Notes under the pieces: generated by a model
What the model was told of the DNA's origin: nothing
Databases searched by the model: none
What the model saw: only the letters and a program-made list of their open reading frames with translations
From: Planctomycetota bacterium
GTDB lineage: Bacteria > Planctomycetota > JAJSAM01 > JAKLKS01
DNA: 64,000 bases
Assembly: GCA_023150535.1 (NCBI GenBank)
Contig: JAKLKS010000001.1
Span: 8,269-72,268, forward strand
Reading direction: 5' to 3'
Made by a program: the position numbers and the translations under genes
Shown: in pieces, positions 5,459 to 36,663 of the stretch
Layout of the letters: every line of letters starts with the position of its first letter
Position numbering within the stretch: position 1 is the stretch's first letter

Positions 5459-6009
5459 TCGAGGAGGCTCTCCTTCGCCTTCTTCGAGAGGGTGCCCTTG
5501 TTGGCTTTCCGCGCGAGGTCCTCGGCCTTCTTCGCCAGCGCCCGCCAGAGTTCCTCACCGATGGCCACGGCGGTCCTCTCGGAGTGCATCGCGAACGCCG
5601 GCCCCAGGAACTCGAAGGCGCGCGTGGCGGAGTGCCGTCGCTTGTTCCTCCGAAACTTCCCCCGGTCGTCCCGGTAGACGCGGCCGCGGCGCTTCGTACC
5701 CTTCTCCACGAACAGCCCGTAGAAGTGGTCCGCGTCGGGGCCGAGCTTGACCGCGATCTCGTTCGGGAACTCGGAGTTCGCCTTCACAGCGGAGACGGTG
5801 ATGGAGTCTGCCAGCGGCTTCAGCTCTCCCGCGGGGACGCCCCCTCGTACGCGGGGGTTCGCCTGGCGACGCACCCGCGCCTTCGCCTCCCGGACCATGG
5901 GCTCGGCGGCCTTCTTCAGGGCCCCGAGGACGAGCTCCCTCCTCAGGGACTTCGGCAGTTGGGCGAGGGCCTCGTCGAGTTCCTTGAAGCCCACCACCGC
6001 CACCCTCAT
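5455..6009 (-). CDS. Phage protein, HK97 gp10 family
   Basis: Start MRVAVVGFKELDEALAQLPKS at 6009; family-typical N-terminus; ATGA overlap with adaptor gene. Confidence 0.7.
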   Translation of the reverse strand: MRVAVVGFKELDEALAQLPKSLRRELVLGALKKAAEPMVREAKARVRRQANPRVRGGVPAGELKPLADSITVSAVKANSEFPNEIAVKLGPDADHFYGLFVEKGTKRRGRVYRDDRGKFRRNKRRHSATRAFEFLGPAFAMHSERTAVAIGEELWRALAKKAEDLARKANKGTLSKKAKESLLD

Positions 6010-13702: not shown

Positions 13703-13788
13703 GGGGATCCTCCGCGCACCAGTGAGAACTGGAGTGTACTGGCCTGACCTGCGCCGAGGAAGCATGGTCCTTCGCCCCTGGGTGACTA

Positions 13789-17537: not shown

Positions 17538-18950
17538 TCACGCGGCCCCCTTCGCTGGGACGCGTTCCGCCTTCTTCCCGGTGAACTGCTCCCACCGCGC
17601 GACGATGACGTCGGTGTAGAGCGGGTCGATCTCGATGAGCCGCGCATTCCGCCCCATCTGCTCAGCGCCGATGAGCGTGCTGCCCGAGCCCCCGAAGAGG
17701 TCGAGCACCGTCTCGCCCGGGCGCGAGCAGTACTTCATGGCGAGCGTCGCTAGCTCGACGGGCTTCTCGGTAAGGTGGACCATCTTCTGCGGCGAGACCT
17801 TTTTCACGCTCCAGACGTCGGTCGCGTTGTTGATGTCGGGGGCGAAGTAGTGGGCGGCGCCTTCGCGCCATCCGTAGAACGCCCACTCATGGTTCCCCAT
17901 GAAGTCCTTCCGCGTGAGGACGGGGTGCTCCTTCACCCAGATGATGGCCTGGGAGAAGTAGAGCCCAGCCTCGACGAGCGCGGGCGGGTAGTTGGCGATA
18001 TTGCTGTACCCGCCCCAGATGAAGAACCCCCGCCCCGGGAGGAGGACGCGGGCGGCGTTCCCGAACCACGCGCGGAGCTTCTCCCGGAACGCCTCGTCGG
18101 ACATGAAGTCGTTCTCGAGGGGGCGGTCCTTCGCCCGCATCCGCTTGTGGGTGGGCTTCGACTTCTCCGGGTGGCGGTCGAGGTCGGCCGCCTGGTGGTG
18201 CATCGTGCCCTGGAAGGAGGAGAGGCCGGCGGCGATGGCGTTGTTCGAGCGCGGCTCGACGCGGACGTTGTAGGGCGGATCGGTGTTCAGAAGGTGGACC
18301 GGCCCGCCGTCCAGGAGCCGGTCGAGATCCTCCGGGCTCCCCGAGTCGCCGCACAGGAGCCGGTGTTCGCCGAGGATCCAGAGGTCGCCGCGGCGCGTCG
18401 TCGGCGTCTCGGGCGGCTCGGGGATGTCGTCGGGGTCGGTCTCCCCCTCCTTCGCCTCCGCGCCGATGCCGGACTTCTGCGCGAGGTCATCGAGCATCGC
18501 GCGCAGCGCGGCGTCGTTGACGGTTGCCTGCGCGAGGAGGGCCTCCAGCTTGGCCGGGTCGGCCGTCGCCATCCCGGCGAGGGGGTCGAGCGACGCGAGG
18601 ACGAGCGCCTCCTCGGCCTCGTCGAGGTCCACGTAGACGACGGGGATCGCGGTCTCGCCGCGCGCCCGAGCGAGTTCCACGCGGAGGTGCCCGTCCACGA
18701 GGTGGCCCGTGCGGCGATTGACGACGACGTCCTGGACCCATCCGACCTGGTCGAGGAGGCCCGCGAGCGCCGCTTGCTGCGCTGGCGGATGCCCGCGCCA
18801 GTTCCTCGGGTTGGCGACGAGCGCCGCCGGGGAGGCCTCGCCGCGGTCCACGATGCGGGAGCGCCAAGGACCGGGCGAGGGCGCCGCCGGAGCGGCCTTC
18901 CGCTTGCGGCCCTTCCGGGTGGCGGCCTGGCTCACGACCAGGCCTCCCAC
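17538..18950 (-). CDS. ParB-like nuclease domain fused to DNA N6-adenine/N4-cytosine methyltransferase
   Basis: N-terminal ParB/Srx-like domain, C-terminal MTase with TDPPY motif and FGGSGST AdoMet motif; common terminase-adjacent phage gene. Confidence 0.85.
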   Translation of the reverse strand: MGGLVVSQAATRKGRKRKAAPAAPSPGPWRSRIVDRGEASPAALVANPRNWRGHPPAQQAALAGLLDQVGWVQDVVVNRRTGHLVDGHLRVELARARGETAIPVVYVDLDEAEEALVLASLDPLAGMATADPAKLEALLAQATVNDAALRAMLDDLAQKSGIGAEAKEGETDPDDIPEPPETPTTRRGDLWILGEHRLLCGDSGSPEDLDRLLDGGPVHLLNTDPPYNVRVEPRSNNAIAAGLSSFQGTMHHQAADLDRHPEKSKPTHKRMRAKDRPLENDFMSDEAFREKLRAWFGNAARVLLPGRGFFIWGGYSNIANYPPALVEAGLYFSQAIIWVKEHPVLTRKDFMGNHEWAFYGWREGAAHYFAPDINNATDVWSVKKVSPQKMVHLTEKPVELATLAMKYCSRPGETVLDLFGGSGSTLIGAEQMGRNARLIEIDPLYTDVIVARWEQFTGKKAERVPAKGAA

Positions 18951-19311
18951 GAGGAGCCGCAGGCGAGGCTAAGGACGCGGCCCGCCGCGTAGGGGTCCGG
19001 GCCGCGGGCGTCCTCGGGGTGGAGACAGGCGCCCTCGGCGCCTGGGCCGGGGGGCCCCCCCCCTCCCTTATTTCGCGGGCGCACGCGCGAGATTGCGCGC
19101 CCGGTACAGGAGGCGAGACCTGTCACAAACCGCTCCCCCTCCCCGGTGCCGGTTTCGCCGTCTGCCAGGCTGGCACCGTCGGTGGCGAAGCCGACTCCCG
19201 CGCCGTCGGGCGCCCCGTTGCCACCCGTGGCGGCCGGCGCGGCCATGGCCACCGGGGCGACGCCGTTGTGGATCGCGCCACCCGTCGCGCCACGGGCGCC
19301 CTCGGGCGCGG

Positions 19312-20460
19312 TCACGGGCGGGCCTCCCCAACCGTAGGGCTCGGCGTCTCTGCCACGCCGAGGTCCCGGAGGAATCCCCCCAGGACCTCGGGGAGCTCCG
19401 TGAGGGCCTGGCGCACGCCGGCGTCCGCGGAGGCGAAGCGCTTGCGGTCCGCGTCGTCCCGAGGGTTCGAGAGGTAGGACACCAGGGAGTCACGGAGGCG
19501 GCGGGCGGAGCGCAGGATCTCGGAGAACTCGTCGCGCTCGGGTGGCTCAGCCAGTTCGCGGAGGTCGTCGAGAGACTCGACGCCCTTGTCGAGCGCCTCC
19601 TCGATCTGGCTGCGCGAGAGCCGGATCTCGCGATTGAGGACGGCGCGGCGGGCGTGAGGAACTGCGCGGTCGAGGGCGTCGAGGGCCTCGGCGAGGGCGG
19701 CGGCGCGGCGGACGGTCTTCTCCCCGACACCCGTCTCGGAGGCGATCTTCGCGCTCGTCTCGTTTGCCCGTCCGTTCCGGTCACTTTGACCGGAACGCAC
19801 CTTGAAGCCCGTCTGCTTCGTCGCGTTGTACTGCCGCCCCAGGTAGTACATCGCCCAGGCGGGCGTGAGGGAGCGCCGCGCCCGCTGCGCCGTGAGGAAC
19901 CACGCCAGCGCCGCCGCGCGGTCCGGGAACGACCGCTTCTCCACGCGGAACGCGATGCCGAGCTCGCGGCAGAGCTCGAGGCGGTGGTGGCCATCGAGGA
20001 GGACGTCCTGCTCCTGCCAGACGACGAGCGCCTCGCGGCACCCCTCGGCGCGGAGCGACTCCCGGAGCGCCGCCTCGGTGGCCTCGTCCATGGGGGCGGA
20101 GAGCTCGGCGATCTCCCGGTCGATGCGGGGCGAGGAGCGGTCGGCCTTCTCCTTCGGGGCGTAGGGCACCTGGTCGGAGCCGGTGACGCGGGTCCAGGCC
20201 TTTTCGCCCTTCATCTGCGCGTAGACCCGGGCGCGCTGTGGAGGAGTCGTCGGGAGATCGAAATCGAGGAGCCCCCGGGCGAGGGACTCGACGACGTCCT
20301 TCGTGCCCGCGAGCACGCTCGCCGGGACGCCGGGCTCCGCGGTGACGGTCTCGGGGTCGTCCTCCTCGGCGTCGAGCGCGGCCTCGAGGAGCGCCGATCC
20401 CGCGGAGGTCCTCCACGCGAGGTCGAGGTCCGTCAGGGCCACGGCGTAGCGGACCTTCAC
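19312..20460 (-). CDS. ParB-like nuclease domain protein (382 aa)
   Basis: GTG start VKVRYAVAL at 20460 with GGAGG RBS; VVWQEQDVLLDGHHRLELCRELGI ParB/Srx motif; N-terminal 102 aa of track ORF spurious. Confidence 0.7.
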   Translation of the reverse strand: MKVRYAVALTDLDLAWRTSAGSALLEAALDAEEDDPETVTAEPGVPASVLAGTKDVVESLARGLLDFDLPTTPPQRARVYAQMKGEKAWTRVTGSDQVPYAPKEKADRSSPRIDREIAELSAPMDEATEAALRESLRAEGCREALVVWQEQDVLLDGHHRLELCRELGIAFRVEKRSFPDRAAALAWFLTAQRARRSLTPAWAMYYLGRQYNATKQTGFKVRSGQSDRNGRANETSAKIASETGVGEKTVRRAAALAEALDALDRAVPHARRAVLNREIRLSRSQIEEALDKGVESLDDLRELAEPPERDEFSEILRSARRLRDSLVSYLSNPRDDADRKRFASADAGVRQALTELPEVLGGFLRDLGVAETPSPTVGEARP

Positions 20461-20834
20461 GCGGGCCTCCGGACGCGACGCCCGAAGCGCCCGTCCTCGC
20501 GGGCGGTCTTGCGGGAGTGGCAGGAGGCACATGCGGCCTGGAGGTTCCGGGGGTCGTGGGTGCCGCCCCGGGCCAGGGGGAGACGGTGGTCCACCTGGGT
20601 CGCGGGGACGGAGAGGCCGCGGGCGGCGCACTCCATCTCGCAGAGCGGGTGCCGACGGAGGAAGGCGTCGCGGATTCGCTTCCACGCCGCGTCGTAGCCC
20701 CGGCGGGAGGGCGAGCCCCGGGTGGAGTCGATCTCCGCCTGGAGCGCGCGGTCGTGCTCGGGGCAACGGGCGCCCCGGCGGACGAGGGCCCCGCAGCCCT
20801 GGACGACGCAGCCGTGCGGAGGTCGATGACCCAT
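20457..20834 (-). CDS. HNH endonuclease (phage-type, terminase-associated)
   Basis: CxxC...HDPRNLQAACASCH motif; start ATG 20834 preferred because conserved motif copy 4 lies just upstream (alternative ATG 20879). Confidence 0.65.
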   Translation of the reverse strand: MGHRPPHGCVVQGCGALVRRGARCPEHDRALQAEIDSTRGSPSRRGYDAAWKRIRDAFLRRHPLCEMECAARGLSVPATQVDHRLPLARGGTHDPRNLQAACASCHSRKTAREDGRFGRRVRRPA

Positions 20835-20853
20835 GGCCTGCAGCGTCGAGGAC

Positions 20854-20873
20854 CGGGAGGCTCGATCAACTCG
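20854..20873 (-). promoter_or_regulatory. Conserved intergenic motif copy 4 (identical 20-mer to copy 1)
   Basis: CGGGAGGCTCGATCAACTCG identical to 2990-3009; different reading frame relative to flanking ORFs than copy 1, so conserved at DNA not protein level. Confidence 0.5.
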
Positions 20874-20875
20874 CG

Positions 20876-21325
20876 TCATCCGAGGCTTGCCCGGAAGACG
20901 CGGGGTGGCGACGGGGATGCGATGTCGTTCCCGTCCATCTCCTCCCGGCGGACGAACTCCCGCCAGCAGGCGAAGGAGCAGTAGGTGCGCCGGCGCGGAG
21001 GCAGGGGGCGTCCGCATGTGCGGCACTCGTGGTTGCCCCCGACGACGCGGTCGGAGCGGTCGAGGCGGGGAAGAGGCGGGATCGCCTGGAGGGGCGGCGG
21101 AGGGGGGAACCCGCAGACGGGGCAGCGGTCGAGCCCCTGGGACCTGGGATCGCGGCCTCCCGCCCGGCGGCAGAGGGCGCAGTTCCCGTCCGGGCAGCAC
21201 CGGACGCCGAGGAGGAGCCCGGCGATGCAGTGCCGGCCTTCGGCGTCGAACGGGATGCAGGGGGCGGGTCGCACCGGGGTCACCGGGGGGAGTCCCCATC
21301 GGAAGCGGGGACGCACGAGGGGCAA
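20876..21325 (-). CDS. Cys-rich zinc-ribbon protein (149 aa)
   Basis: CPVCG...NHECRTCG...YCSFAC pattern; start uncertain (overlaps primase end). Confidence 0.45.
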   Translation of the reverse strand: MPLVRPRFRWGLPPVTPVRPAPCIPFDAEGRHCIAGLLLGVRCCPDGNCALCRRAGGRDPRSQGLDRCPVCGFPPPPPLQAIPPLPRLDRSDRVVGGNHECRTCGRPLPPRRRTYCSFACWREFVRREEMDGNDIASPSPPRVFRASLG

Positions 21326-23874
21326 TCGCAGGAGGAGGAGTGCCCGGGCGTGGCGGGGGCGTCGGGGTCGGCGGCGGTGCCGTTGTGGGGGAAGTGGGGG
21401 AACTGGGGGACGGAGTAGGCCCCAGGGTTTACGGAGTAGGAAGGAGAAGGCCTCCTCCCTCCTCCTCTTCTCTGTTCGTCCTGATCCCTCCTGATGTACC
21501 CCCTCTCCTCTAGGTCCTGCAGCGGGGGATCCAGGTCCTCAGCCTTCTGGAACCTCCCTCCCTTGGTCTCCTGCCAGACCTCCCTTTTGGTGAACCTGTC
21601 CCTAGGCCTCCTGAGGATCCAACGGAGGAGATAGAGAGAGTCCTCCTTCTCTCTGTTCGTTCCCATGAGCCCAAAGGCTGCCAGGGCATGGGGGATGAGG
21701 TACCGCCCCAGGAGGATGGCCCGCTCGACCGCCTCCCTTGAAACCGTACTGGGTCCCCCAATTCCCCCACATCCCCCGGAACTCCCGGGATCCGCGCCGT
21801 CGGCCAGGGTGAGGAGCCCGGCGATGCGGGCGACGGCCCCCGGGAGCTTGGCCGCCCAGTCCCGGACGGCCTCCAGGTCTCCACCCTCGGCGAGGCGGGG
21901 CTCGATCTCGCCGGAGAACCGAAGGAGCACCTCGACCGCCTCCGGGGAGAAGTGGAGGGCCCGAGAGACGATCTCCCCGTCCTGCCCCCGGTCGGCCGGG
22001 AGGTCGAGGAGGGTCCACACCGTGGCGGCGTAGGCGGCGGTGACGCCGGCGGGGACCGGGGGCGGGTCCACCCGGCGGCGGCCGACGAGCGACTTCGGCA
22101 CGCTGTAGAGGAAGCGGGCCAGAAGGCCCCGCCCCCGGAACCCCGGCTTGTCGGCCAGGCCTTCGATGACGGCGGGCTGGACCGCCAGCCCCACCGTGAG
22201 GGCGGGCTCGCGCAGGTGCTCGGCGGGCCTCCCGATGCGGTCCACGCGGAGCTGGTCCCCGGAGTGGGCCTTGAGGAAGGCGTCGAGGTTCGGGAGGCCG
22301 TCGGAGTACCGCCCCGCGAGGAGGTCGAAGATCCCGCCCTCGGGCGAGAGGATGCCGAGGCGGCCACCCTGCTCGGTCAGGAGCCCGAAGAGCCGCTCCG
22401 GGGTCACGTCGTCGGCGAGGACGCGAGGGGCGACCGCTCGGGGGAGCGCGGCCACGTCCTCGTTCAGGCAGCGGAGGTCCTCCTCGGCCACGAGGCGATC
22501 GGCACCCCGGGCCTTGATGGCGCGCGTCTTGGCGTCCTTGAGCCGCCCCTCGGCGATCTCCAGGGAGAGGGCGGCCCCCCGGAGCCGGGGGCCCTCCCGC
22601 TGAATGGCATCGCGCTCCCAGTCGAGGAGGGGCGCCGTGGCGTCTCGGAAGACGGCGGACTTCCGCTCGCCCGGGGGGAGGGTGACCTCGGTGTAGACGT
22701 TGAGGGGCTCTACCCACTCGGGTCGGATGGTGGCGCGGTACTTCTTGGCGGCCGCGGTCGCGAGGACGGAAAGCGCGATCATCCCCGGGAGGTCCTCGGG
22801 GGTCTGGGTGGAGACGGCCTCCGCGCGGATCCAGTCGGCCACGGATACGGGGAAGGCGTCGGTCGGGAACGCCGGGAGGTCCGAGGCCGCATCGAACGGG
22901 ATCGGGGATTGCCAGGGGTCCGGTGCGGCGGACGCTGGGGACCTCCGGGCAGGGAGCGCCGCAGGGCCCGCCGGCTCGTAGAACTCCGTCCGCCCCTCGA
23001 GTGCCTTGGCCAGGGTCCGCTCGCGGTAGTCCTGGCGGTCCCACTTCTCCCGGTAGAGCCGGGAGCGCCGGAAGAGGCGGTCCACCTGGACCACGTCGCC
23101 CCGGCACCAGAAGGCGAGGTGGGAGCAGAGAGCCAGGTCGGCGGAGGAGTCGTCCCCTGCGTGTCCCGAGGTGTCCCCGTTCCACAGGCGGAGGAAGGAG
23201 GCGCCGTTGCGGGCACCGATGGCTCGGCGGAGGACCTCGTCGTCGCCGAGGTGCCCCGGCTGGCGGGGAGAGCCCTGGGCGGGCGCCGTTGGCTCCTTCG
23301 TGTCCAGGGAGGCGTAGAGGCGGTCCACGGCCGCCTGGCGGTCCTCGATGCCCGCGGGGTACTCGGGCAGGCGGCTCCCGGTGACCGTGAAGTAGCGCCC
23401 CCGGTCGTAGATCTCGACGGCGGCCTCGGGGTGGGCTCCATCCTCGCGGACGGGCCGCTTGCGGCCGGATCCGGAGAGGGCGCCCCGAACGAGGACGTGG
23501 ACGCCCGTCCCCGAGGGGCTCACCTCGGTGTAGGAGGCGAGTGCGGCGAGGATGGCCGTGGCCCAGGGTGCCAGGGCCCCCGTCTCGGCGTCCCGGCAGT
23601 GGTCCAGATCCACGCCCACGAGGCCGTCGCCGGCGAACACGAAGCCGACGCCGCCCTGCTCCCGTCGCCGCTGGGCGGCAAGTGCCTCCTCCAGGGAGCA
23701 CCATGTGGTGGGCGCAGTGCTCCTCGCATGGGTGCCGCGCGTGGTGTAGGGGACCTTGGTCGGCTTGCGCTTCCCCTTGACCGTCTCCAGCCGCCAGAGG
23801 ACCCACTGCCGGCGGTCCTGGAGTTCGGCCGGGACGTTCGCCCGCACCAGCGCGGGGTCAAAGGGGAAGGTCAT
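21280..23874 (-). CDS. Bifunctional primase-polymerase (PrimPol N-domain + PriCT-2 + D5_N/DUF3987 helicase-like), 864 aa
   Basis: Start MTFPFDPAL at 23874 (ATGA overlap with VRR-NUC stop); GFVFAGDGLVGVDLDHC..SPSGTGVHVLV PrimPol motifs; VVQVDRLFRRSRLYREKWDR PriCT_2. Confidence 0.8.
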   Translation of the reverse strand: MTFPFDPALVRANVPAELQDRRQWVLWRLETVKGKRKPTKVPYTTRGTHARSTAPTTWCSLEEALAAQRRREQGGVGFVFAGDGLVGVDLDHCRDAETGALAPWATAILAALASYTEVSPSGTGVHVLVRGALSGSGRKRPVREDGAHPEAAVEIYDRGRYFTVTGSRLPEYPAGIEDRQAAVDRLYASLDTKEPTAPAQGSPRQPGHLGDDEVLRRAIGARNGASFLRLWNGDTSGHAGDDSSADLALCSHLAFWCRGDVVQVDRLFRRSRLYREKWDRQDYRERTLAKALEGRTEFYEPAGPAALPARRSPASAAPDPWQSPIPFDAASDLPAFPTDAFPVSVADWIRAEAVSTQTPEDLPGMIALSVLATAAAKKYRATIRPEWVEPLNVYTEVTLPPGERKSAVFRDATAPLLDWERDAIQREGPRLRGAALSLEIAEGRLKDAKTRAIKARGADRLVAEEDLRCLNEDVAALPRAVAPRVLADDVTPERLFGLLTEQGGRLGILSPEGGIFDLLAGRYSDGLPNLDAFLKAHSGDQLRVDRIGRPAEHLREPALTVGLAVQPAVIEGLADKPGFRGRGLLARFLYSVPKSLVGRRRVDPPPVPAGVTAAYAATVWTLLDLPADRGQDGEIVSRALHFSPEAVEVLLRFSGEIEPRLAEGGDLEAVRDWAAKLPGAVARIAGLLTLADGADPGSSGGCGGIGGPSTVSREAVERAILLGRYLIPHALAAFGLMGTNREKEDSLYLLRWILRRPRDRFTKREVWQETKGGRFQKAEDLDPPLQDLEERGYIRRDQDEQRRGGGRRPSPSYSVNPGAYSVPQFPHFPHNGTAADPDAPATPGHSSSCDCPSCVPASDGDSPR

Positions 23875-24206
23875 CGGAGGAGCCTCTCCACGTCGTCGAG
23901 GGACCGGACGACAGCGGCGAGGCCACCTGCCTGGACGACGGCGAGGAGGAACGCGCGCTGGGCGGGCGCGAGGTGGCCCGAGGAGGTCTTCACCTCCAGC
24001 GCGACAAACTGCGCGACGCCCGAGGGGAGCGTTCGCCATCCGACGAGGTCCGCGGAGCCCGGGCAGAGCCCGTAGGGGATAGCCCCGCCCCCGGGGAGGC
24101 GGACCATCCCCACCGAGTTCCTGAAGAGCCGAAGCCCGGGCCTCGCGCCGAAGGTGCGCAGGATCGCCCGGAGGAGGCGGGTCTCGTCGTGGCGGCGGGA
24201 TCTCAT
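23871..24206 (-). CDS. VRR-NUC domain nuclease (111 aa)
   Basis: Start MRSRRHD at 24206; ..FVALEVKTSSGHLAPAQRAFL.. VRR-NUC signature. Confidence 0.7.
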   Translation of the reverse strand: MRSRRHDETRLLRAILRTFGARPGLRLFRNSVGMVRLPGGGAIPYGLCPGSADLVGWRTLPSGVAQFVALEVKTSSGHLAPAQRAFLLAVVQAGGLAAVVRSLDDVERLLR

Positions 24207-24409
24207 GCCTCGCCCCCCGGCGTCGGCGGCGGGCCAGCTCTCCGGATCGCCTCCGGGGTCTGGCGGACGTAGCGGACGAAGGCCCCGCAGGCCGCGCACT
24301 CGGCCCGGATGTGCGTGGTCCCGTCGCGGAAGACCTGCCACCGCAGGAGGAGCCCGGCGCACCCGGGGCGGGCACGGGGGCACCCGTTCGGCGCCGAGGA
24401 GGAGGTCAT
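24203..24409 (-). CDS. Small zinc-ribbon protein (68 aa)
   Basis: Two CxxC pairs; ATGA overlaps on both sides. Confidence 0.5.
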   Translation of the reverse strand: MTSSSAPNGCPRARPGCAGLLLRWQVFRDGTTHIRAECAACGAFVRYVRQTPEAIRRAGPPPTPGGEA

Positions 24410-29254: not shown

Positions 29255-29740
29255 TTACCTCTCCCCCTTCCGTTCGCCACCGTCCTGGAGTCGGAGGTCG
29301 ATGCCCTGGAGGTCGACCCCGGGTTCGAAGGTCCGCGTGCGATCCCGGCTGCGGTCGAGTCCCCGCTTGAGGCCGCGGTGGGTCCGCTGGCGGAGCGCGG
29401 CGCAGACCTCACACCGTCTCGGCGTCCCACGGGTGGTCCGCCCCGTGTCCTGGCCGCAGGTGGGGCAGTAGTAGGGCGTCGTCACGAGGCGTAGGCGCTC
29501 CGCCTTCCGGCGCGAGACCTCCTCGGCGCGGCCGAGCGCGGAAGCGACGGCCTCCTCGATCGATGCCCCGCGACCAACGGTGCGCCAGCGGCGAGGGGCG
29601 ACCTGCGCGTTGACGCAGACCGAGGGGCGCTCCCCGCTCCACCGCGCCACCTGGAGGATGCCCCAGTACTTCCGCAGCGGCTGGAGGGCCTCGATGTCCC
29701 CCGGGCGGAAGGTCCGATCCGGAACGCAGTGGGGGGTCAC
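29255..29740 (-). CDS. Hypothetical zinc-ribbon protein (161 aa)
   Basis: YYCPTCG...RRCEVC. Confidence 0.5.
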   Translation of the reverse strand: MTPHCVPDRTFRPGDIEALQPLRKYWGILQVARWSGERPSVCVNAQVAPRRWRTVGRGASIEEAVASALGRAEEVSRRKAERLRLVTTPYYCPTCGQDTGRTTRGTPRRCEVCAALRQRTHRGLKRGLDRSRDRTRTFEPGVDLQGIDLRLQDGGERKGER

Positions 29741-30268: not shown

Positions 30269-31066
30269 TCACGGCTCCACCTGGGGGCCGAGGAGGCGCC
30301 GAAGGACCGCCTCCGCCCGCTGGCGGCGCTTCTTGGCCATCTCGTAGGCGACTCCGCGCAACTCTGCGAGCGCCTTGAGGTTCTGGCCGTAGAGGCGGGT
30401 GGCCACGATGAGGTGCCGGTCGAGGTCGGAGATGAGCCCTTCCGCGACGGCCCGCTCGCAGGCCCGGGCGAGCGCCTGGGCGAAGGCCCCCCTGCGGGCC
30501 GCGGTCTCCGCCTCCTCCGCGAGTGCGGCCGGGTCCAGAGAGGAGGAGGAGACGGCGACCTCCCCCGTCCGCTCGGCTGCCCGAAGGAGCCCCGCCACGG
30601 CCTGCTGCTCCTTCGCCCTGTCCGCCTCGACATCCCCCAGGCGATGGAGCGTGTCGAGCTTGAGGTTCTGGGCGACGCGGGAGGTCCGCCGCGCCACGGG
30701 GAAGCGCCAGGCCGTCTCCAGGAAGGCCCAGTAGACCTCGGCCCAGAGCTCCTCCGGCTCCCGGGCCGGCCCCCGCTTCGAACGCGCAATGGCCGCAAGC
30801 CCAGGCCAGAGGGCGAGGAGAAGGAGCGCCCCGACACCGGGGCGCTGCGGGCCACCGGCCTGGAAGGTCCGCAGGAGTGCGCAGAGGGCGGCGTCCTTCC
30901 TCGCGTACTCCTCCGAGGGTGCGTGGAGGAACTCGAGGAGCGCCGCCGACGTCGGGAACGGCGCGAGACCCTCGTCGCACCGGAGCGACTGCTCGAAGAA
31001 CGACTGGAACGCCTCCCCGGAGACCTCGCGCTGGAGGTCCCCCGGGATCCCGTGGGAGAGAGGCAC
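30269..31066 (-). CDS. Sigma-70-family-like phage transcription factor (265 aa)
   Basis: C-terminal ISDLDRHLIVATRLYGQNLKALAELRGVAYEMAKKRRQRAEAVLRRLL resembles sigma region 4; region-2-like ELWAEVYWAFLETAWRF. Confidence 0.55.
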   Translation of the reverse strand: MPLSHGIPGDLQREVSGEAFQSFFEQSLRCDEGLAPFPTSAALLEFLHAPSEEYARKDAALCALLRTFQAGGPQRPGVGALLLLALWPGLAAIARSKRGPAREPEELWAEVYWAFLETAWRFPVARRTSRVAQNLKLDTLHRLGDVEADRAKEQQAVAGLLRAAERTGEVAVSSSSLDPAALAEEAETAARRGAFAQALARACERAVAEGLISDLDRHLIVATRLYGQNLKALAELRGVAYEMAKKRRQRAEAVLRRLLGPQVEP

Positions 31067-31159: not shown

Positions 31160-31390
31160 TCAAGGAACCGGCGGCGACGGACCGCTCGCGGCGGCCGGCG
31201 CCGTGCGCGTGGGGGGATGGTCGTTCGCGAGGCCGCACTTGCGGCAGATGGCGATGGCCTCGCCGAGGACCACGTACTGTGCTTTCTTGTGGCGGAGGTA
31301 GAGGCGCCCTCGGCGTTCCACGCCGAGAAGCGCATCACAGCCGGTGCAGCGCCACTCGCGCGGGTCTAGGTTGGCGCGAGGACCTCGCGC
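31160..31390 (-). CDS. Mu Com-like zinc-finger protein (start uncertain)
   Basis: WRCTGCDALLGVERRGRLYLRHKKAQYVVLGEAIAICRKCG resembles Com translational regulator. Confidence 0.4.
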   Translation of the reverse strand, partial: ARGPRANLDPREWRCTGCDALLGVERRGRLYLRHKKAQYVVLGEAIAICRKCGLANDHPPTRTAPAAASGPSPPVP

Positions 31391-32613
31391 CAAGTCCGGA
31401 GCGCCGCAACCTTCACGAGGGCGTTGTCCCCGAACTTCCCCGCGGTCGTGGTGAGCGCGGTCAGACACGAGTCCACACCCCGGTCGAGGAGAGCCTTCGC
31501 CTCCGCCTGGCGGGCGTAGAGGAAGTGACTCTCGCAGTGCCCGTCCTCGCCCATCGCTGCGAATCGATCGATGTTGGAGCCGTAGACATCCCGGCACGCC
31601 TTGCAGGGGCACCGCAGGGACCCGTGCTCACGCAGCAGCCGCTCCGCGTTCGCGAGCTCCATCGAGCGGTGGAGCGCTGGGACGTAGAACTTCGGCTTCG
31701 GTGCTCCGCCTCCAGGTCCAAACGCATAGGCGTTCTTCCAGGCTCCTTGCCCAAGTCCGCACGTGAATCCGGTCAATCCTTGGGCGAAGAGGAGCATCGA
31801 GAAGTAACCGCCGTAGAGCTTGAACACCTGGCGGCCACCTGAGGAGAGGCCGCGCACGAGCCGGACGAGCCCCCGCAGATGCTCGGCCGGCGCTGCGTCC
31901 TCGGGGAGGTCGTTCACCCACAGGAGGCAGGCGTCGAATGCCCGGGCACGGTAGTCCGCCACGATCCGATCCACGACAGCCTCGTCCTCGAGCGCAACGG
32001 CATCGAGGTGGATCACCGGGGCGATCCGTTCTCCCTTCTCGCGAACCGAGAGCGCCCGCTCAGCGAGGCGGAGATCGAGGTCGTACCAGGGGTCTTCCAC
32101 GTTGCGGAATGGGAAGTAGGGCGGCACGAGAAAGGCCGGTCCCGCCGGAGGTGGGGAGGACGATGCGGGAGCGGAGTCCCCGTAGAGGGCGTACTTCGCG
32201 TAGTAGGGCTCGAGCGGGAGGTTCATCTGGCCCAGGAACTTTGCCTTCTGGTGGGTGAGTACCCTCCGCACGGCGTCGTCGGTGGCGTTCCCCTTCTCCG
32301 GGAAGTCGGCAGGGACGAGGGCGCGGCGTCCCAGTGCAACCTCGAACGGTGCGCCGAAGCCTTTCGCAAGCCGCAAGAGCCACGGACGGACGGCCTTCTT
32401 GTCCGCATCGCACAGCCGCTCCGGCCGTAGCACGAAGAAGTACGTGGTGGGATCCGCAATGAAAGGCTTGTCCGTCTCGAGGACGAAGTTCGCCACGTGG
32501 TCGACGACCGTTACAGGGACGTGGAGGCCGTGGTAGAAGCCGTCCGCGGCACGGAGGAGGCGCTTGTGTCCTCCTTGCGGTCGAAGGAGCATCAGCGGCC
32601 CCAGCGGCTTCAT
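31366..32613 (-). CDS. tRNA-guanine transglycosylase (TGT)/DpdA-like protein, 415 aa
   Basis: C-terminal zinc site RCPCKACRDVYGS...HFLY matches TGT CxCxxCR(N/D)Y...H motif; Gly-rich LGQGAWKN segment. Confidence 0.55.
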   Translation of the reverse strand: MKPLGPLMLLRPQGGHKRLLRAADGFYHGLHVPVTVVDHVANFVLETDKPFIADPTTYFFVLRPERLCDADKKAVRPWLLRLAKGFGAPFEVALGRRALVPADFPEKGNATDDAVRRVLTHQKAKFLGQMNLPLEPYYAKYALYGDSAPASSSPPPAGPAFLVPPYFPFRNVEDPWYDLDLRLAERALSVREKGERIAPVIHLDAVALEDEAVVDRIVADYRARAFDACLLWVNDLPEDAAPAEHLRGLVRLVRGLSSGGRQVFKLYGGYFSMLLFAQGLTGFTCGLGQGAWKNAYAFGPGGGAPKPKFYVPALHRSMELANAERLLREHGSLRCPCKACRDVYGSNIDRFAAMGEDGHCESHFLYARQAEAKALLDRGVDSCLTALTTTAGKFGDNALVKVAALRTWREVLAPT

Positions 32614-32646: not shown

Positions 32647-33081
32647 TCACTCGAACGCTCCGCGAAGCTGATGCGCGTGCCGCCGGTTGAGGAACGACTG
32701 CCTCCTCGGAGCCGCGACGACCCGCGCCTCGCGTCGCCCCCTCGGGCCCTCGGCCACTTCTATGACGCCAAGGCCGTGGCTCTGGATGACGGCGACCCGT
32801 TCGGCATCGAGGTGGCGGTGCCAGAGCGCCACATAGACCCGGTGCGCGCCGAGCTGGTACACGGCCGCCTGGAGGAGGGCCTTCCGCCACTTGCTCACTT
32901 TGAGCTCGACGGCCACGAGGCGGCGGGTCTCCCGGTCGAGGAACAGCATGTCGATGCTCTTTCCGTGGAAGGAGACCTCTGTACGGAGCGCGAACCGCCG
33001 CGCCGGGAACAGCTTCCGTAGCGGCGCGCGGAGCGAGCGCTCCGCAACGACTGCCCGGGCGGGGTCCCCTCGGCGCTTCAC
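32647..33081 (-). CDS. Small PD-(D/E)xK nuclease (Mrr-cat-like), 144 aa
   Basis: SIDMLFLDRETRRLVAVELKVSKW = D...ExK restriction-endonuclease-like core. Confidence 0.55.
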   Translation of the reverse strand: MKRRGDPARAVVAERSLRAPLRKLFPARRFALRTEVSFHGKSIDMLFLDRETRRLVAVELKVSKWRKALLQAAVYQLGAHRVYVALWHRHLDAERVAVIQSHGLGVIEVAEGPRGRREARVVAAPRRQSFLNRRHAHQLRGAFE

Positions 33082-33899
33082 TCGTCCTCGCCGAGGACTC
33101 GGCGGCGGATCTTCGACTTGGTCGTGAGGGCGGGGTAGCGCTCGTAGACGAGACGGACCAGGTCCTTGAGAGGAAGCGAGCCGTACTTCGAGCTCACGTC
33201 GCGCACCCCGGCCAAGATGGCGGGATCCCGAGCTTCAGCGCTCCTGGCCAGCGACTCGGCAACCCTCTTCCCCTTGGCCGTCAGCCGGAAGGTGTACTCG
33301 ACCTCCTTCGAACCGCGGACGAGGTCCACATCGTCGTCCTGCTGTCGGCCCCGGCGTGGGGGCCGGACGGCCTCGAGAACGCCCGCCCGCCGGAGCCCCG
33401 CGATGTCGTCGTAGACCGCCTTGTCGAAGGGACCGTAGTCGTAGGCGACGTGCTGGTAGTAGTCCGGGACGAACCGCTTGGCCATCCCCTCCTCGCCGAC
33501 GAGGAGGAGCATCTTGACGGCCTGCGTGAAGCCGCGGATCTCGTTCATCACGTAGAGGAGGAGGACGAGGAAGTCCGTGCGCTGGCTCACCGGGATCGGG
33601 GGAAGGGCGGGCGAGCCCTCGGCCACACCTTCCGGCACCGTGTCCTGCCCTGGTCCCGCGAGGAACCTCGCCCGCACCGCGGCGAAGCCGGAGCGCGCCC
33701 CCTCGCTCACGATGAGATCCCGCGTCTCGTCCCTCACCTGAACCGCCGCCTCGAGGAGCGGGCGAAGCTCCGAGGCCAGGGCGGGGTAGTTCCGGAGGAA
33801 AGCTCCCACCGAAGGACCCTTCCCGGAGTTCAGTCGGTCAACGAAGTCCGAGATGGCGTCCGCGAGAGCCCCCTCTTTCCGATCGTCACTCCCCATCAT
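33078..33899 (-). CDS. Hypothetical protein, possible anti-sigma factor or Panacea-like antitoxin (273 aa)
   Basis: Translationally coupled downstream of ECF sigma and upstream of nuclease; helical N-terminus; wHTH-like C-terminus. Confidence 0.55.
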   Translation of the reverse strand: MMGSDDRKEGALADAISDFVDRLNSGKGPSVGAFLRNYPALASELRPLLEAAVQVRDETRDLIVSEGARSGFAAVRARFLAGPGQDTVPEGVAEGSPALPPIPVSQRTDFLVLLLYVMNEIRGFTQAVKMLLLVGEEGMAKRFVPDYYQHVAYDYGPFDKAVYDDIAGLRRAGVLEAVRPPRRGRQQDDDVDLVRGSKEVEYTFRLTAKGKRVAESLARSAEARDPAILAGVRDVSSKYGSLPLKDLVRLVYERYPALTTKSKIRRRVLGEDE

Positions 33900-34521
33900 G
33901 GCCAGCTGCCCCCTTCCTGGTCAGGAGGTCCGCGAAGTAGGAGCCGGGCGCACCTCCTCTCTCGGCGAGGCCGCGGAGAGTGCGCGCATGGAGCATCTTC
34001 ACGGCCCCTTCCGACTTCCCCATGAGCACGGCGGTCTCCGCGACGCTCAGGCCGTTCAGGTTGCGGTGCACCACAACCTCCCTCTGAGCCTCCGGGAGTT
34101 TGGCGAGAAGATCGACCAGGTGGTAACGGCGTTCCTCGGCCAGAAGCCCTGCGGCGGGGCCAGTTCGGGGGGAGTCATGGGGATCCGCAACGCCTTCCAG
34201 GACCTCCGGATCGTTCACCGCCCCATTGGGGGGACTCCGACTGGCCTCCCGGCGCCGGTGATCGACGGCAGCATGCCGTGCGAGCGTGATGAGCCAGGTC
34301 CGGAGGCGGCAGTCTCCCCGGAAGGTCCCGATGGACCTGAATGCCCGCAGGAACGCGTCCTGGGTGATGTCCTCGGCGTCGTGGAAGGCTCTCCCCTTCA
34401 GAATGGCGATGGCCACGAACCCGAACACGGCCTCGTAGTGGGAATCCCAGAGGCGCCGCTGCGCCTCCGGGCAGCCAGTCTTGAGCCCTTGGATCAGGTC
34501 GATCTCGTCGCCGTCCGACAC
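33886..34521 (-). CDS. ECF-type RNA polymerase sigma factor (sigma-24 family)
   Basis: Region 2 ...DAEDITQDAFLRAFRSIGTFRG... and region 4 LNGLSVAETAVLMGKSEGAVKMLHARTLRGL. Confidence 0.85.
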   Translation of the reverse strand: MSDGDEIDLIQGLKTGCPEAQRRLWDSHYEAVFGFVAIAILKGRAFHDAEDITQDAFLRAFRSIGTFRGDCRLRTWLITLARHAAVDHRRREASRSPPNGAVNDPEVLEGVADPHDSPRTGPAAGLLAEERRYHLVDLLAKLPEAQREVVVHRNLNGLSVAETAVLMGKSEGAVKMLHARTLRGLAERGGAPGSYFADLLTRKGAAGHDGE

Positions 34522-34788: not shown

Positions 34789-35133
34789 GTGCGGCCCAGC
34801 GACGCGCTCCCGGCGGAGGCTTCTGAGCCTCGTCGCCACCTCCTCCCCGGCGACCTCCTGTCCGTGGCCCAGGCGCTCGAGCTCCTCCCCGTGGGCCGGG
34901 CGACGCTTTACCGGCTCCTCGCGGAGCAGGCGATCCCCTCCATCCGGGTGGCCACCCTGGGGTCGCGGAGGGGGCGGGTGCTCATCGTGCGGGGCGGCCT
35001 TGAGCGCTTCGTGGCCTCGCTCCTCGGGCCCCCCGAGGAGCGCCGCGTGAGTCCCCGTCCCCTCGACGTGAACGCGCTCCGCGACCGCATCGTCGGGGCG
35101 GGCGCTGTCCGTGCCCGCTTGGAGGCTCGCTGA
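34789..35133 (+). CDS. Excisionase-family HTH DNA-binding protein
   Basis: LLSVAQALELLPVGRATLYRLLAEQAIPSIRV HTH; GTG start with GGAGGG RBS; directly upstream of integrase. Confidence 0.6.
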   Translation: MRPSDALPAEASEPRRHLLPGDLLSVAQALELLPVGRATLYRLLAEQAIPSIRVATLGSRRGRVLIVRGGLERFVASLLGPPEERRVSPRPLDVNALRDRIVGAGAVRARLEAR

Positions 35134-36554
35134 TGGGCGATGGCTGGCCCAGGAACACCCTTGATGTGCCCCCCGGGACGAGCCCTCATGCGGACATGCC
35201 CAGGAACCAGACCCCGGAGCCGCTCGATCCCGAGGCCCGAGACCGGCGCTCCGCATCATCCTCCCACGAGGAGGGGGGCCGGCGGCGCCGACGGGTATTC
35301 GGACGGATCTACCGCAAGCCCACCTCGCAGTCGACGTGGTACGTCCGGTTCCCGGACCCCGAGCGGCGCCGGGCCCCGAACGGGCGGGTCCGGGAGATCG
35401 TCCGGTCGGTCCCGTCCCGCCGGGCGGCCGAGGCCCTGCTCGCGGAAGTCCGGAAGGCCCTCTACGCGGGCACCTACGCCCCGCCGCCCCCGGCCCTGGC
35501 GGGACCCGCGGCCCTCACGATGCAGAGCGCCGCCCCGGGGACCGCCGCCGAGACTCCCGCCCGCCCCTTCACCGTCCTCGACGCCATCGACGAGTACATC
35601 GCCTCCCGCGAGGCCGCGGGCCGGATGCGGAACACGCTCGACTCCTACCGCGGGCACCGCAACGCGATCGCGCAGAGCCCGCTGGGAACCGTCCCTGCCG
35701 ACGCGGTGACCCCGGCGGACATCGAGGCCTTCCGGGCCTGGCGGCGGGAGCGATCCTGGAAGACGGTCCGCCGGCCCGGGGAGGTGAAGGATCCCGACGT
35801 GACGGAGGTCGCCCGGGCTGCGTCGAACGCAACGGTGAACCGGGCGCTGATGGTCCTTGGGGCCTCACTCAACCGACTCGTGAAGCTGGGGCGCCTCCGG
35901 GAGAACCCAGTCCTCCGGGTCGTGAAGGCGCGGGAGGCACGCCAGCCGCGGGTCTCCCTCACCAAAGACGAGGCCCGCCGCCTCATCGAGGCTTCCGACC
36001 CGGCCCTCCGGCCGCTCGTGGCCGCGGGGCTCTACACCGGGGCGCGTCTCGGAGAGCTCCTCCGTCTCACGTGGGCGGACGTCACCTTCGGGTCCGGGAG
36101 TGGGACGGGGACCATCTCCCTCTTCCGGCCCAAGGTCGGGAACGCCTCCCGGATCCCGTTCCACCCACGGCTCGCCGAGGAACTCCTGCGGGTCCGGGAG
36201 TCGCGGGCACGCAAGCGCGGCCGGCCCGTCCCCGATGACGAGCCCATCTTCCTCTCGTCCTACGGCCGGGCGTGGGTGACCATCGGGGGGGCGTTCAAGA
36301 AGGCGCTCCGGACCGCGGGCCTCGAGGGGCGGGGCATCGTCTACCACAGCCTCCGCCATACGTTCGCCGTCCACTTCCTCGAGGGCGGCGCGGCGGTGAC
36401 CGACCTCCAGGGGATCCTCGGCCACGCGGACCTCACCACGACCCAGATCTACGCCCACATGGTGGACAGCCGGACTCGAGCGAGTCTGGTCGCCCTCGAC
36501 TACGGGGCGCCGGCGGCCACGGGAGACGGCGCAGATCCCGGCCCAGCCCGATAG
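35133..36554 (+). CDS. int: Tyrosine-type site-specific integrase
   Basis: R...HSLRHTFAV...Y catalytic pattern (GARLGELLRLTWADV, YHSLRHTF, TTQIYAHM); ends 33 nt before tRNA. Confidence 0.9.
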   Translation: MGDGWPRNTLDVPPGTSPHADMPRNQTPEPLDPEARDRRSASSSHEEGGRRRRRVFGRIYRKPTSQSTWYVRFPDPERRRAPNGRVREIVRSVPSRRAAEALLAEVRKALYAGTYAPPPPALAGPAALTMQSAAPGTAAETPARPFTVLDAIDEYIASREAAGRMRNTLDSYRGHRNAIAQSPLGTVPADAVTPADIEAFRAWRRERSWKTVRRPGEVKDPDVTEVARAASNATVNRALMVLGASLNRLVKLGRLRENPVLRVVKAREARQPRVSLTKDEARRLIEASDPALRPLVAAGLYTGARLGELLRLTWADVTFGSGSGTGTISLFRPKVGNASRIPFHPRLAEELLRVRESRARKRGRPVPDDEPIFLSSYGRAWVTIGGAFKKALRTAGLEGRGIVYHSLRHTFAVHFLEGGAAVTDLQGILGHADLTTTQIYAHMVDSRTRASLVALDYGAPAATGDGADPGPAR

Positions 36555-36586
36555 AATACCCCCCTGTTGCAACGGGCCGCATCTGG

Positions 36587-36663
36587 GTCCCCGTAGCTCA
36601 GTAGGATAGAGCGGCTGGTTCCTAACCAGCAGGTCGCAGGTTCGACTCCTGCCGGGGATACCA
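36587..36663 (+). tRNA. tRNA-Arg (anticodon CCU)
   Basis: Hand-folded cloverleaf: acceptor GUCCCCG/CGGGGAU, D arm GCUC-AGUAGGAUA-GAGC, anticodon stem GCUGG/CCAGC loop UUCCUAA, T arm GCAGG-UUCGACU-CCUGC, discriminator A, encoded CCA. Confidence 0.9.

Follow-up and report, generated by a model that had tools for sequence, protein, structure and literature searches.

What a protein built like a tRNA-guanine transglycosylase (TGT) does close to the integrase of a prophage is the question raised by the locus described here. Known enzymes of the TGT fold exchange guanine in tRNA (TGT itself) and in DNA (DpdA), or handle protein-linked deazaguanine in the cyclic-oligonucleotide-based anti-phage signalling system CBASS (Cap10). 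The window, as the whole of the analysed DNA is called throughout, is a stretch of 64,000 nucleotides (nt) from a Planctomycetota bacterium (contig JAKLKS010000001.1, positions 8,269 to 72,268), and the gene is located in a prophage within it. An earlier note on this DNA had read the 415-amino acid (aa) product as a TGT/DpdA-like protein that might serve the hypermodification of guanine in phage DNA. The structural part of this idea proved to be right, given the matches to TGT returned by Foldseek and a zinc motif of the DpdA type; the proposed chemistry fared poorly, and the company that the gene keeps suggests, tentatively, a role in defence. The gene and the two motifs that bear most directly on its assignment are the following (positions are those of the window):

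31366..32613, minus strand: 415-aa TGT-fold protein, a predicted (beta/alpha)8 barrel with a C-terminal zinc subdomain, called from the open reading frame (ORF), codon GC, AlphaFold and Foldseek
31525..31611, minus strand: zinc-site motif C335-x-C337-xx-C340-x22-H363, kept in 96-99% of 151 full-length relatives
32452..32454, minus strand: D54 codon; the motif KPFFID-P closes the third barrel strand, and D54 may correspond to TGT Asp102 and DpdA Asp95

That the 415-aa protein is the product of a real gene was confirmed by the GC contents of the three codon positions (0.71/0.46/0.82), which are of the coding type in a region with an overall GC content of 72%. An AlphaFold model built on an alignment of 18 sequences (pLDDT 86.7, pTM 0.87) has eight barrel strands and a beta-hairpin (residues 308-319) followed by the Cys triad, with H363 on a long terminal helix. 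When this model was compared with the PDB by Foldseek, ranks 1-42 were all TGT or QTRT1 structures, including mouse QTRT1 and the Zymomonas mobilis (Zm) TGT, at probability 1.0, E values from 6e-5, template modelling (TM) scores of 0.42-0.52, and sequence identities of 8-11%; after rank 42 came GH10 xylanases with far lower TM scores. Searched against BFVD, the model returned phage and archaeal-virus TGT-like proteins. The zinc motif quoted in the earlier note is present as RCPCKACRDVYGS at residues 334-346 and HFLY at 363-366, and its conservation argues that it did not arise by chance. In DpdA, the corresponding motif is CXCX2CX22H, with the cysteines provided by an insertion between beta8 and alpha8 and the histidine by the terminal helix (PMC10164549); that of the 415-aa protein is of the same type, and hhalign sets its CPCKAC on the CDCYTC of E. 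coli TGT. On the evidence of the model, the 415-aa protein belongs to the TGT structural superfamily, as a divergent member.

Membership at the level of sequence found no such backing. The TGT/DpdA profile search suggested by the earlier note was covered by Pfam and NCBIfam, and neither these nor PADLOC or PHROGs gave a match at E ≤ 1. A sequence search of the PDB, with the protein alone or with an 18-member family profile, returned nothing at E ≤ 10; as a control, E. coli TGT alone reached DpdA (7ui4) at E = 1.7e-4. Word-indexed searches found 18 relatives only; exhaustive searching with a profile gave 937 representative clusters at E ≤ 1e-3 (424 at E ≤ 1e-30), counted at 50% identity and nearly all of 400-450 aa. 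The family is thus both widespread and unannotated, being without a model in Pfam, NCBIfam, PHROGs or PADLOC. A scan of a genome collection yielded a single locus and a scan of metagenomes 33 more; the related loci (labelled L001 and so on below) form a biased sample of the family because they come mostly from one pattern-based metagenome scan (pattern KPFFIDP[MV]). No homologue was found by tblastn in 50,697 isolated phage genomes, from which E. coli TGT as query retrieved bacterial-type TGTs only and did not return DpdA. At one locus (L038, 671-2635) the TGT-like ORF was observed to read through to 654 aa; in L039 and L040 the C-terminal extension corresponds to an ORF of its own further downstream, and judging by these sequences the long ORF is probably a frameshift or assembly artefact and not a fusion.

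Three aspartates, at the ends of strands beta3, beta4 and beta8, are used by TGT, DpdA and Cap10: a general acid/base at beta3 (Zm D102, DpdA D95, Cap10 D73), a base-binding residue at beta4 (Zm D156, Cap10 D122), and the nucleophile at beta8 (Zm D280, DpdA D256, QTRT1 D279, Cap10 D248) (PMC10164549; bioRxiv 10.1101/2025.04.06.647259). D54, which closes model strand 51-54, is a candidate for the first of these. It is D in 146 of the 151 relatives and is followed by P55 in 149; the equivalence is drawn from topology alone, the N-terminal half of the protein not being alignable to TGT with hhalign. For beta4 and beta8, the positions were mapped by the strand topology of the model together with the hhalign register. 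The end of beta4 reads P164-P165-Y166-F167, with P165 invariant (151/151), and there is no D or E at residues 157-169 of the family consensus. Strand beta8 (282-286) reads GFTCG, with no acid at the position of the nucleophile; across the family, residue 284 is S, C, V or A, residue 285 is S, H, C or R, and residue 286 is G. The nearest partly conserved acid past beta8, E291 (70% of the family), is Ala291 in the window protein. The catalytic aspartates, to which the earlier note had looked as a check on its proposal, are therefore missing at two of the three positions (P165-Y166 at beta4 and T284-C285-G286 at beta8 are non-acidic), and on the model the base-binding and nucleophile aspartates of guanine transglycosylases are lost.

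The register itself comes from a weak alignment of the family with six TGT sequences (E 0.0024, probability 12%), which runs colinear between alpha4 and the zinc site. It pairs PVIc with LFGIIQG at beta5, FDGxLLWIxxFxE with FDGYAIGGLAVGE at beta6, LYGG with LMGVG at beta7, and CxCxxC with CxCxxC. Against E. coli TGT alone, the hhalign alignments were confined to the zinc motif or to beta5-beta6, and the probability against TGT ranged from 1 to 12% across runs. The positions kept in 80-100% of the 151 relatives are D54-P55, Q122, P165-Y166-F167, W176, W232, E238, Y267-G268, G279, G286, Y310, the Cys triad, H363, E371 and W408, together with basic residues at 293 (K/R293) and 368 (R368). As the conserved residues sit at or just past the C-terminal ends of the model strands, a pocket on the catalytic face appears to be under selection.

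The TGT-like gene is the fourth of a tightly packed series on the minus strand, in the order ECF (extracytoplasmic function) sigma factor, 273-aa protein, 144-aa protein, TGT-fold protein, zinc-ribbon protein and 265-aa protein, of which the first four genes overlap or lie at most 33 nt apart. The genes upstream of it are:

33886..34521, minus strand: ECF-type sigma factor, first gene of the cassette, with matches to Sigma70_r2, r4_2 and ECF models
33078..33899, minus strand: 273-aa Panacea-type protein (pan), overlapping the sigma gene by 14 nt and the nuclease gene by 4 nt
33081-33587, minus strand: Panacea (SocA/DUF4065)-type domain of pan, residues ~105-273, assigned by hhalign to stand-alone partners
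32647..33081, minus strand: 144-aa PD-(D/E)xK nuclease-like partner (nuc), ending 33 nt upstream of the TGT-like gene

By its residues, nuc is predicted to be a catalytically intact PD-(D/E)xK nuclease: E14, D44, E59-x-K61 and Q71, a full set for this superfamily, are kept in 34-35 of 35 homologues. Its only profile matches (YhcG_C, Cas4 and PDC-S02) are sub-threshold, and a single-sequence AlphaFold model (pLDDT 52) was too poor for a fold search. When hidden Markov models of the partner genes were run over all ORFs of all related loci, the gene immediately preceding the TGT-like one was nuc at 33 of the 37 non-redundant loci whose upstream sequence was long enough. Translational coupling links the two, with gaps from -56 to +33 nt, and they are naturally fused in P0108 and P0114, where nuc forms the N-terminus (BLASTP to the window nuc, E = 6e-18 and 4e-14, respectively).

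The Panacea assignment of pan is made through its relatives. Its C-terminal half aligns by hhalign with the 208-aa partner of L013 (99.4%, E 5e-22) and the 188-aa partner of L014 (99.2%), and 13 of the 22 members of the family match Pfam SocA_Panacea (PF13274) directly, at best with E = 3e-8; the L013 partner, at 31.9 bits, exceeds the cut-off of 25.7. The PADLOC model PDC-M19A was matched by the window pan (E 1e-8) and by the L013 partner (8e-14), this being the only component of PDC-M19 to be matched, and no PADLOC model was matched by the TGT-like protein or nuc. Of 29 loci, 28 encode a protein homologous to the C-terminal half of pan; the first ~100 residues of pan are confined to sigma-linked versions and may constitute an anti-sigma part.

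Whereas the core of the cassette is nearly constant, the gene between pan and nuc varies. It encodes a PIN protein in seven loci (L013, L022, L023, L028, L042, L043 and L052) and a membrane protein of ~210 aa with predicted helices in about ten others (including L026, L027, L030, L031 and L033-L036). Sigma-linked loci have no gene in this slot; there the sigma gene stands before pan, and pan is extended N-terminally by ~100 residues; besides the window, an ECF sigma gene precedes the cassette in L001, L004, L005, L008, L011, L016 and L051. The order of sigma, ~270-aa, (144-aa) and TGT-like genes recurs in L001 beside a tyrosine integrase, and the sigma-linked cassette lies beside serine recombinases in L005, L008, L016 and L051. 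In L016 it is also directly downstream of, and co-oriented with, a LexA/CI-like repressor gene. Other copies have neighbours of a different kind: GmrSD and RadC in L011, from a proteobacterial metagenome-assembled genome; an HNH gene in L004, at a chromosomal site; and, beside further chromosomal copies, a McrB-like AAA_5 ATPase, a PDDEXK_7 protein and an Eco57I-type methylase in L026 and an IS110 transposase and a MmeI-type enzyme in L023. Two further neighbourhoods were recorded. The most distant viral copy (L009, 5825-9089; IMG/VR UViG_2816332561_000003; 22% identity) has the nuc/TGT-like pair without a Panacea gene, and ~700 nt upstream of it is a gene whose 290-aa product gave a weak match of the nucleoside 2-deoxyribosyltransferase kind (E 8e-4). 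Downstream of the sigma-linked cassette of L051 (7756-10172) are a DUF6119 protein (E 5e-138) and a TIM-barrel protein resembling 4-HFC-P synthase.

Taken together, a multi-gene defence or exclusion module is the reading that we favour, tentatively and somewhat short of even confidence. The TGT fold would provide base-level recognition or chemistry for the nuclease, and the output would be gated by the Panacea protein. This reading is ranked first because the pocket is non-canonical, the nuclease is coupled or fused to the TGT-fold protein, a Panacea protein is the partner, the output gene is swappable, and the copies lie in defence neighbourhoods or at the integrase end of prophages. By analogy, exchange of effectors around a constant core and the pairing of Panacea with PIN or membrane proteins are typical of conflict systems derived from toxin-antitoxin modules. 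Precedent for TGT-fold proteins in conflict settings is found in Dpd (PMC10164549), CBASS Cap10 (bioRxiv 10.1101/2025.04.06.647259), and the BREX-related BRC (PMC12839542). As envisaged, the TGT-fold protein and nuc would form a conserved pair of which the former is the large subunit; it would bind a base of DNA or tRNA and perhaps flip it out, excise it or alter it, and this event would direct or license the nuclease. Until then, the Panacea protein would restrain an exchangeable output component, a PIN RNase or membrane protein in chromosomal versions and an ECF sigma factor in the prophage and recombinase-linked versions. The copy in the window would accordingly act in defence or superinfection exclusion from its place near the integrase, with transcription as its output, and not as a pathway for hypermodifying the guanines of its own phage. 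The fold, the zinc motif, the conserved operon, the fusions, the exchange of effectors and the defence genes nearby are observations, as are, by model topology and a weak profile alignment, the missing aspartates; the substrate, the chemistry, the sensor/effector logic and the anti-sigma role are what we infer for the cassette.

Several observations weigh against a defence or exclusion module. The cassette heads the strand that carries the replication genes, and hence it could equally have an early lytic role, such as anti-defence. Four sigma-linked loci are without nuc, so the nuc/TGT-like pairing is not obligatory, and the window pan has no direct match to PF13274, its Panacea domain being assigned transitively. 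The argument for defence is one of association, in 3-4 of the ~10 neighbourhoods inspected. The call of missing aspartates depends on predicted strand order and a profile alignment of low probability, and another acid, E238, E371 or the Glu of the family motif YGE (Ala291 here), could be catalytic.

The proposal of the earlier note, in its fullest form, is that the protein is a DpdA-like DNA-guanine transglycosylase that draws on host preQ0 and exchanges phage guanines for 7-deazaguanines, by which restriction is evaded. The superfamily fold and zinc motif, the near-invariant D54 ending the third strand, and the location in a prophage near early genes are all as it would predict, and phages with dpdA that are devoid of precursor genes have been described. 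However, TGT/DpdA signals are absent from Pfam, NCBIfam, PHROGs and PDB searches, although DpdA itself is within reach of E. coli TGT, the beta4 and beta8 strand ends are without an acidic residue, isolated phages yielded no homologue, and the gene is accompanied by a nuclease gene and by an antitoxin domain, also at chromosomal sites outside phages. Linkage to precursor synthesis was likewise lacking. With the E. coli proteins as phmmer queries, neither QueC, QueD, QueE, FolE nor TGT was found at E ≤ 1 in the six-frame translation of the window, which agrees with the remark of the earlier note that no preQ0 genes are visible there, and the first four were not found at E ≤ 1 in the 48 related loci either; Pfam scans of the prophage ORFs for que/folE were also negative, though such genes may lie elsewhere in the host, outside the window. 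With two of three aspartates missing, no que/folE linkage, and nuclease and Panacea partners, hypermodification of phage guanine is now quite unlikely. A related idea, that the TGT-fold enzyme marks resident DNA with some change of base and its PD-(D/E)xK partner cuts incoming DNA that is unmarked, in the manner of Dpd and of restriction-modification (R-M), would explain the tight coupling or fusion of a nuclease to a nucleic-acid-modifying fold, for which the fused type IIG/IIL enzymes offer a parallel, and would sit well with R-M genes among the neighbours and with the Dpd precedent. It meets the same lack of canonical transglycosylation residues, the persistence of the TGT-like gene without nuc in four loci, and the absence of a precursor or DpdB-like ATPase partner among the scanned neighbours (DpdB was not specifically searched for), and is rather improbable.

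Of the readings that give the Panacea protein a larger part, one treats the cassette as a toxin-antitoxin module stabilizing the prophage or island, in which the TGT-fold protein, with or without the nuclease, damages bases of DNA or tRNA and is countered by pan. Panacea and TGT-fold proteins are the most constant pair (28/29 loci), a weak match to the DarG model was seen on the Panacea partner, and Panacea antitoxins are known to neutralize dozens of unrelated toxin folds, in a survey that left out operons of more than three genes (PMC8832971). Yet the PIN or membrane-protein gene directly after the Panacea gene is the better fit for a toxin, the Panacea and TGT-like genes are usually two genes apart, and the sigma variant has no obvious toxin logic; such a module appears unlikely. 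Doubtful, too, is a specific mechanism in which nuc and the TGT-fold protein form a base-flipping reader-nuclease, with recognition relayed through the Panacea protein to exchangeable outputs, namely a PIN RNase, a membrane toxin or, in prophages, an ECF sigma factor. Its transglycosylase-derived pocket would recognize a particular, possibly modified, purine, with 7-deazaguanine in invading phage DNA and the G34/Q34 anticodon loop of GUN tRNAs as candidate targets. If true, the pair would be an immune sensor whose output in the prophage is a transcription programme. Finally, the cassette might be a regulatory device of the phage, a sigma/anti-sigma switch with the TGT-fold protein as sensor of a nucleic acid or of a small molecule, such as a queuine/preQ-type base. 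The overlap of the ECF sigma gene with the gene that follows is typical of sigma/anti-sigma pairs, a second sigma-like gene is found just downstream, and the cassette is flanked by the integrase on one side (in L016 by a CI-like repressor) and by the replication genes on the other. But most members of the family, namely the PIN and membrane variants, are outside prophages and have no sigma factor, for which reason regulation of phage genes can be neither the ancestral nor the general role, and we consider this the least probable of the alternatives, and very unlikely.

The prophage itself was recognized from a tyrosine integrase gene beside a tRNA-Arg and from the TerL, portal and capsid genes, in agreement with the phage context assumed in the earlier note. 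The features outside the cassette are:

34789..36663, plus strand: prophage boundary, with excisionase-like gene, integrase and tRNA-Arg
36587-36663, plus strand: tRNA-Arg(CCT)
35004-36554, plus strand: tyrosine integrase (Phage_integrase match)
34789-35133, plus strand: putative excisionase-like helix-turn-helix gene, assigned from synteny and sequence (HTH_17 called on the L001 gene)
31160..31394, minus strand: 77-aa four-Cys zinc-ribbon protein (C17xxC20 ... C52xxC55) with a TTG start, conserved in L001/L002
30269..31066, minus strand: 265-aa protein with a sigma region-4-like C-terminus (weak SigZ and sigma70-ECF matches, residues 166-259)
29255-29740, minus strand: 161-aa ORF with a CPTC...CEVC zinc-ribbon motif, of coding type (GC content at third codon positions, GC3, 0.89) and without a family match
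21280-24405, minus strand: primase-polymerase-type replication protein (DUF3987 and NrS-1 polymerase helix-bundle domain)
19312-20865: 518-aa ORF after the primase-polymerase gene, without a family match
17538-18968, minus strand: N6/N4-type DNA methyltransferase (Pfam N6_N4_Mtase, E 3e-23)
11195-13789, minus strand: 865-aa ORF with DEAD/ResIII and Helicase_C_2 domains, between the large terminase and portal genes

Beyond the 265-aa gene, the minus strand continues with a PD-(D/E)xK exonuclease, an AAA_24 ATPase, a helicase and the DUF3987/NrS-1-type primase-polymerase, and further along with the N6/N4 DNA methylase, the small and large terminase subunits, and portal, capsid and tail genes. 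The 161-aa ORF is situated between the sigma-like gene and the exonuclease gene. A scan for promoters and terminators at 28-36.7 kb found nothing. The methyltransferase is a candidate for conventional phage DNA modification, independent of the TGT-like gene. Families of thymidine hypermodification (aGPT-Pplase) were also considered and rejected, no such Pfam family being matched at E ≤ 1. With a GC content of ~0.63 overall and a GC3 of 0.74, against ~0.9 around it, the 865-aa ORF looks like an acquired cargo (moron) gene that may, too, serve defence or anti-defence.

Downstream of the TGT-like gene, the family varies. The zinc-ribbon gene of the window lies in the frame of a 150-aa ORF (31160..31612), in which the TTG at 31394 is the only plausible start; it overlaps the 3' end of the TGT-like gene by 29 nt and is 93 nt from the next gene. 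That it is genuine is argued by the closest contigs, L001 and L002, in which the TTG, both CxxC pairs and a near-identical core sequence are kept across 12 synonymous codon differences. It is kept in these two alone. In the L008 clade its place is taken by a small gene of the CxxC...CxxC kind that is unrelated to it and again precedes a sigma-like gene, and in L004 and L011 by HNH-type genes. Also at this position, just 3' of the TGT-like gene in two prophage clades, a small conserved ORF was observed (L005 6382-6603, L006 3678-3899, L016 ~5490-5680) that ends in ...IQDGLP(I/V)(S/C)AEYVKKKVKF. The 265-aa sigma-like gene is syntenic in L001/L002 and has analogues in L008 and L005; a second, divergent sigma-like gene follows the cassette in the window (30269-31066, minus strand), L008 (5728-6336) and L005 (7595-8218), so that in several prophage versions a sigma-type gene stands at either end of the cassette. 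In the window and L008, a gene for a small four-Cys protein lies just before the second of these.

The earlier note had likened the zinc-ribbon gene to com of phage Mu. A real gene is indeed there, for 77 aa and with a TTG start, and what failed was the Com signature: a comparison with the Com family gave no match at E ≤ 5, generic zinc ribbons (FGT1, E6 and SprT) being reached at E 0.11-0.17. Like Com, the product is a small protein with two CxxC pairs encoded beside a suspected nucleic-acid modification gene. However, com lies immediately upstream of, and overlaps, the gene that it regulates, whereas the zinc-ribbon gene lies 3' of the TGT-like gene. The Cys pairs are separated by ~16 residues in Mu Com and by 31 in the window protein. 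The parallel with com/mom was rejected on the lack of a Com match, the 3' position of the gene, and its retention in the nearest relatives only. Were the zinc-ribbon protein regulatory, the downstream sigma-like gene might, speculatively, be a more natural partner for it than the TGT-like gene.

The family would represent a further recruitment of the TGT fold, in ~940 clusters, with a remodelled active site and a partnership with nuclease and Panacea proteins. If the cassette is a defence system, it would add a new type of sensor or enzyme to prokaryotic immunity and provide an example of a prophage sigma factor replacing the occupant of a toxin slot. For annotation, a word of caution follows: a CxCxxC...H motif in a phage protein is insufficient for calling DpdA or for predicting 7-deazaguanine in DNA.

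Among known proteins, the best structural matches are TGT and QTRT1, to which the weak hhalign alignment is colinear over beta5-beta8 and the zinc motif, with E238 after beta6 aligned to the glutamate of the GLAVGE motif of TGT. The 415-aa protein differs from them in the absence of equivalents of Asp156 and Asp280 (Z. mobilis numbering), in having no match to Pfam PF01702, and in a ~100-residue insertion between strands 3 and 4 that is partly disordered (128-156). With DpdA (PDB 7UI4) it has in common a TIM barrel whose large beta8/alpha8 insertion is pinned by a CXCX2CX22H zinc site, a His contributed by the terminal helix, a beta-hairpin before the Cys triad, and an occurrence in mobile or defence contexts. 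Unlike DpdA, it is without detectable sequence similarity to that protein and without a counterpart of the nucleophile Asp256, 7UI4 is not among the top 50 Foldseek matches, and its partners are a PD-(D/E)xK nuclease and a Panacea protein; no preQ0 genes are near, and DpdB and DpdC were not seen among the scanned neighbours, no search having been aimed at them. Cap10, the TGT-family enzyme of type IV CBASS whose substrate is protein-linked 7-deazaguanine, shows the fold re-used in an anti-phage system with a remodelled substrate surface (bioRxiv 10.1101/2025.04.06.647259). However, Cap10 keeps the nucleobase-binding residues D73/S74/D122/K154 and the catalytic D248/H226, none of which is found here beyond D54 as the candidate counterpart of D73, and its companions are a CD-NTase and the QueC homologue Cap9, neither of which is present. 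The TGT-fold proteins of Dpd, CBASS and BRC are all recognizable TGT homologues that keep the aspartates (PMC10164549; bioRxiv 10.1101/2025.04.06.647259; PMC12839542), and Dpd and Cap10 systems carry partners from the deazaguanine pathway (PMC10164549; bioRxiv 10.1101/2025.04.06.647259).

Chromosomal versions of the cassette also resemble the PanAT systems, in that a Panacea gene is followed by a PIN or membrane-protein gene and the type of toxin is swapped, the latter being a hallmark of PanAT. They differ in forming a four-gene operon with a near-constant pair of nuclease and TGT-fold protein, and the prophage versions differ further by the ECF sigma factor in place of the toxin and the extra N-terminal domain of the Panacea protein. 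The omission of operons of more than three genes from the PanAT survey may explain why the cassette has escaped description; in the literature covered, on Panacea with transglycosylases, on PDC-M19 and on TGT in defence islands, no description of an operon of Panacea, PD-(D/E)xK and TGT-like genes was found. The family is classed not as a new member of DpdA, but as a branch of the TGT superfamily that is new, as is the architecture of its operon.

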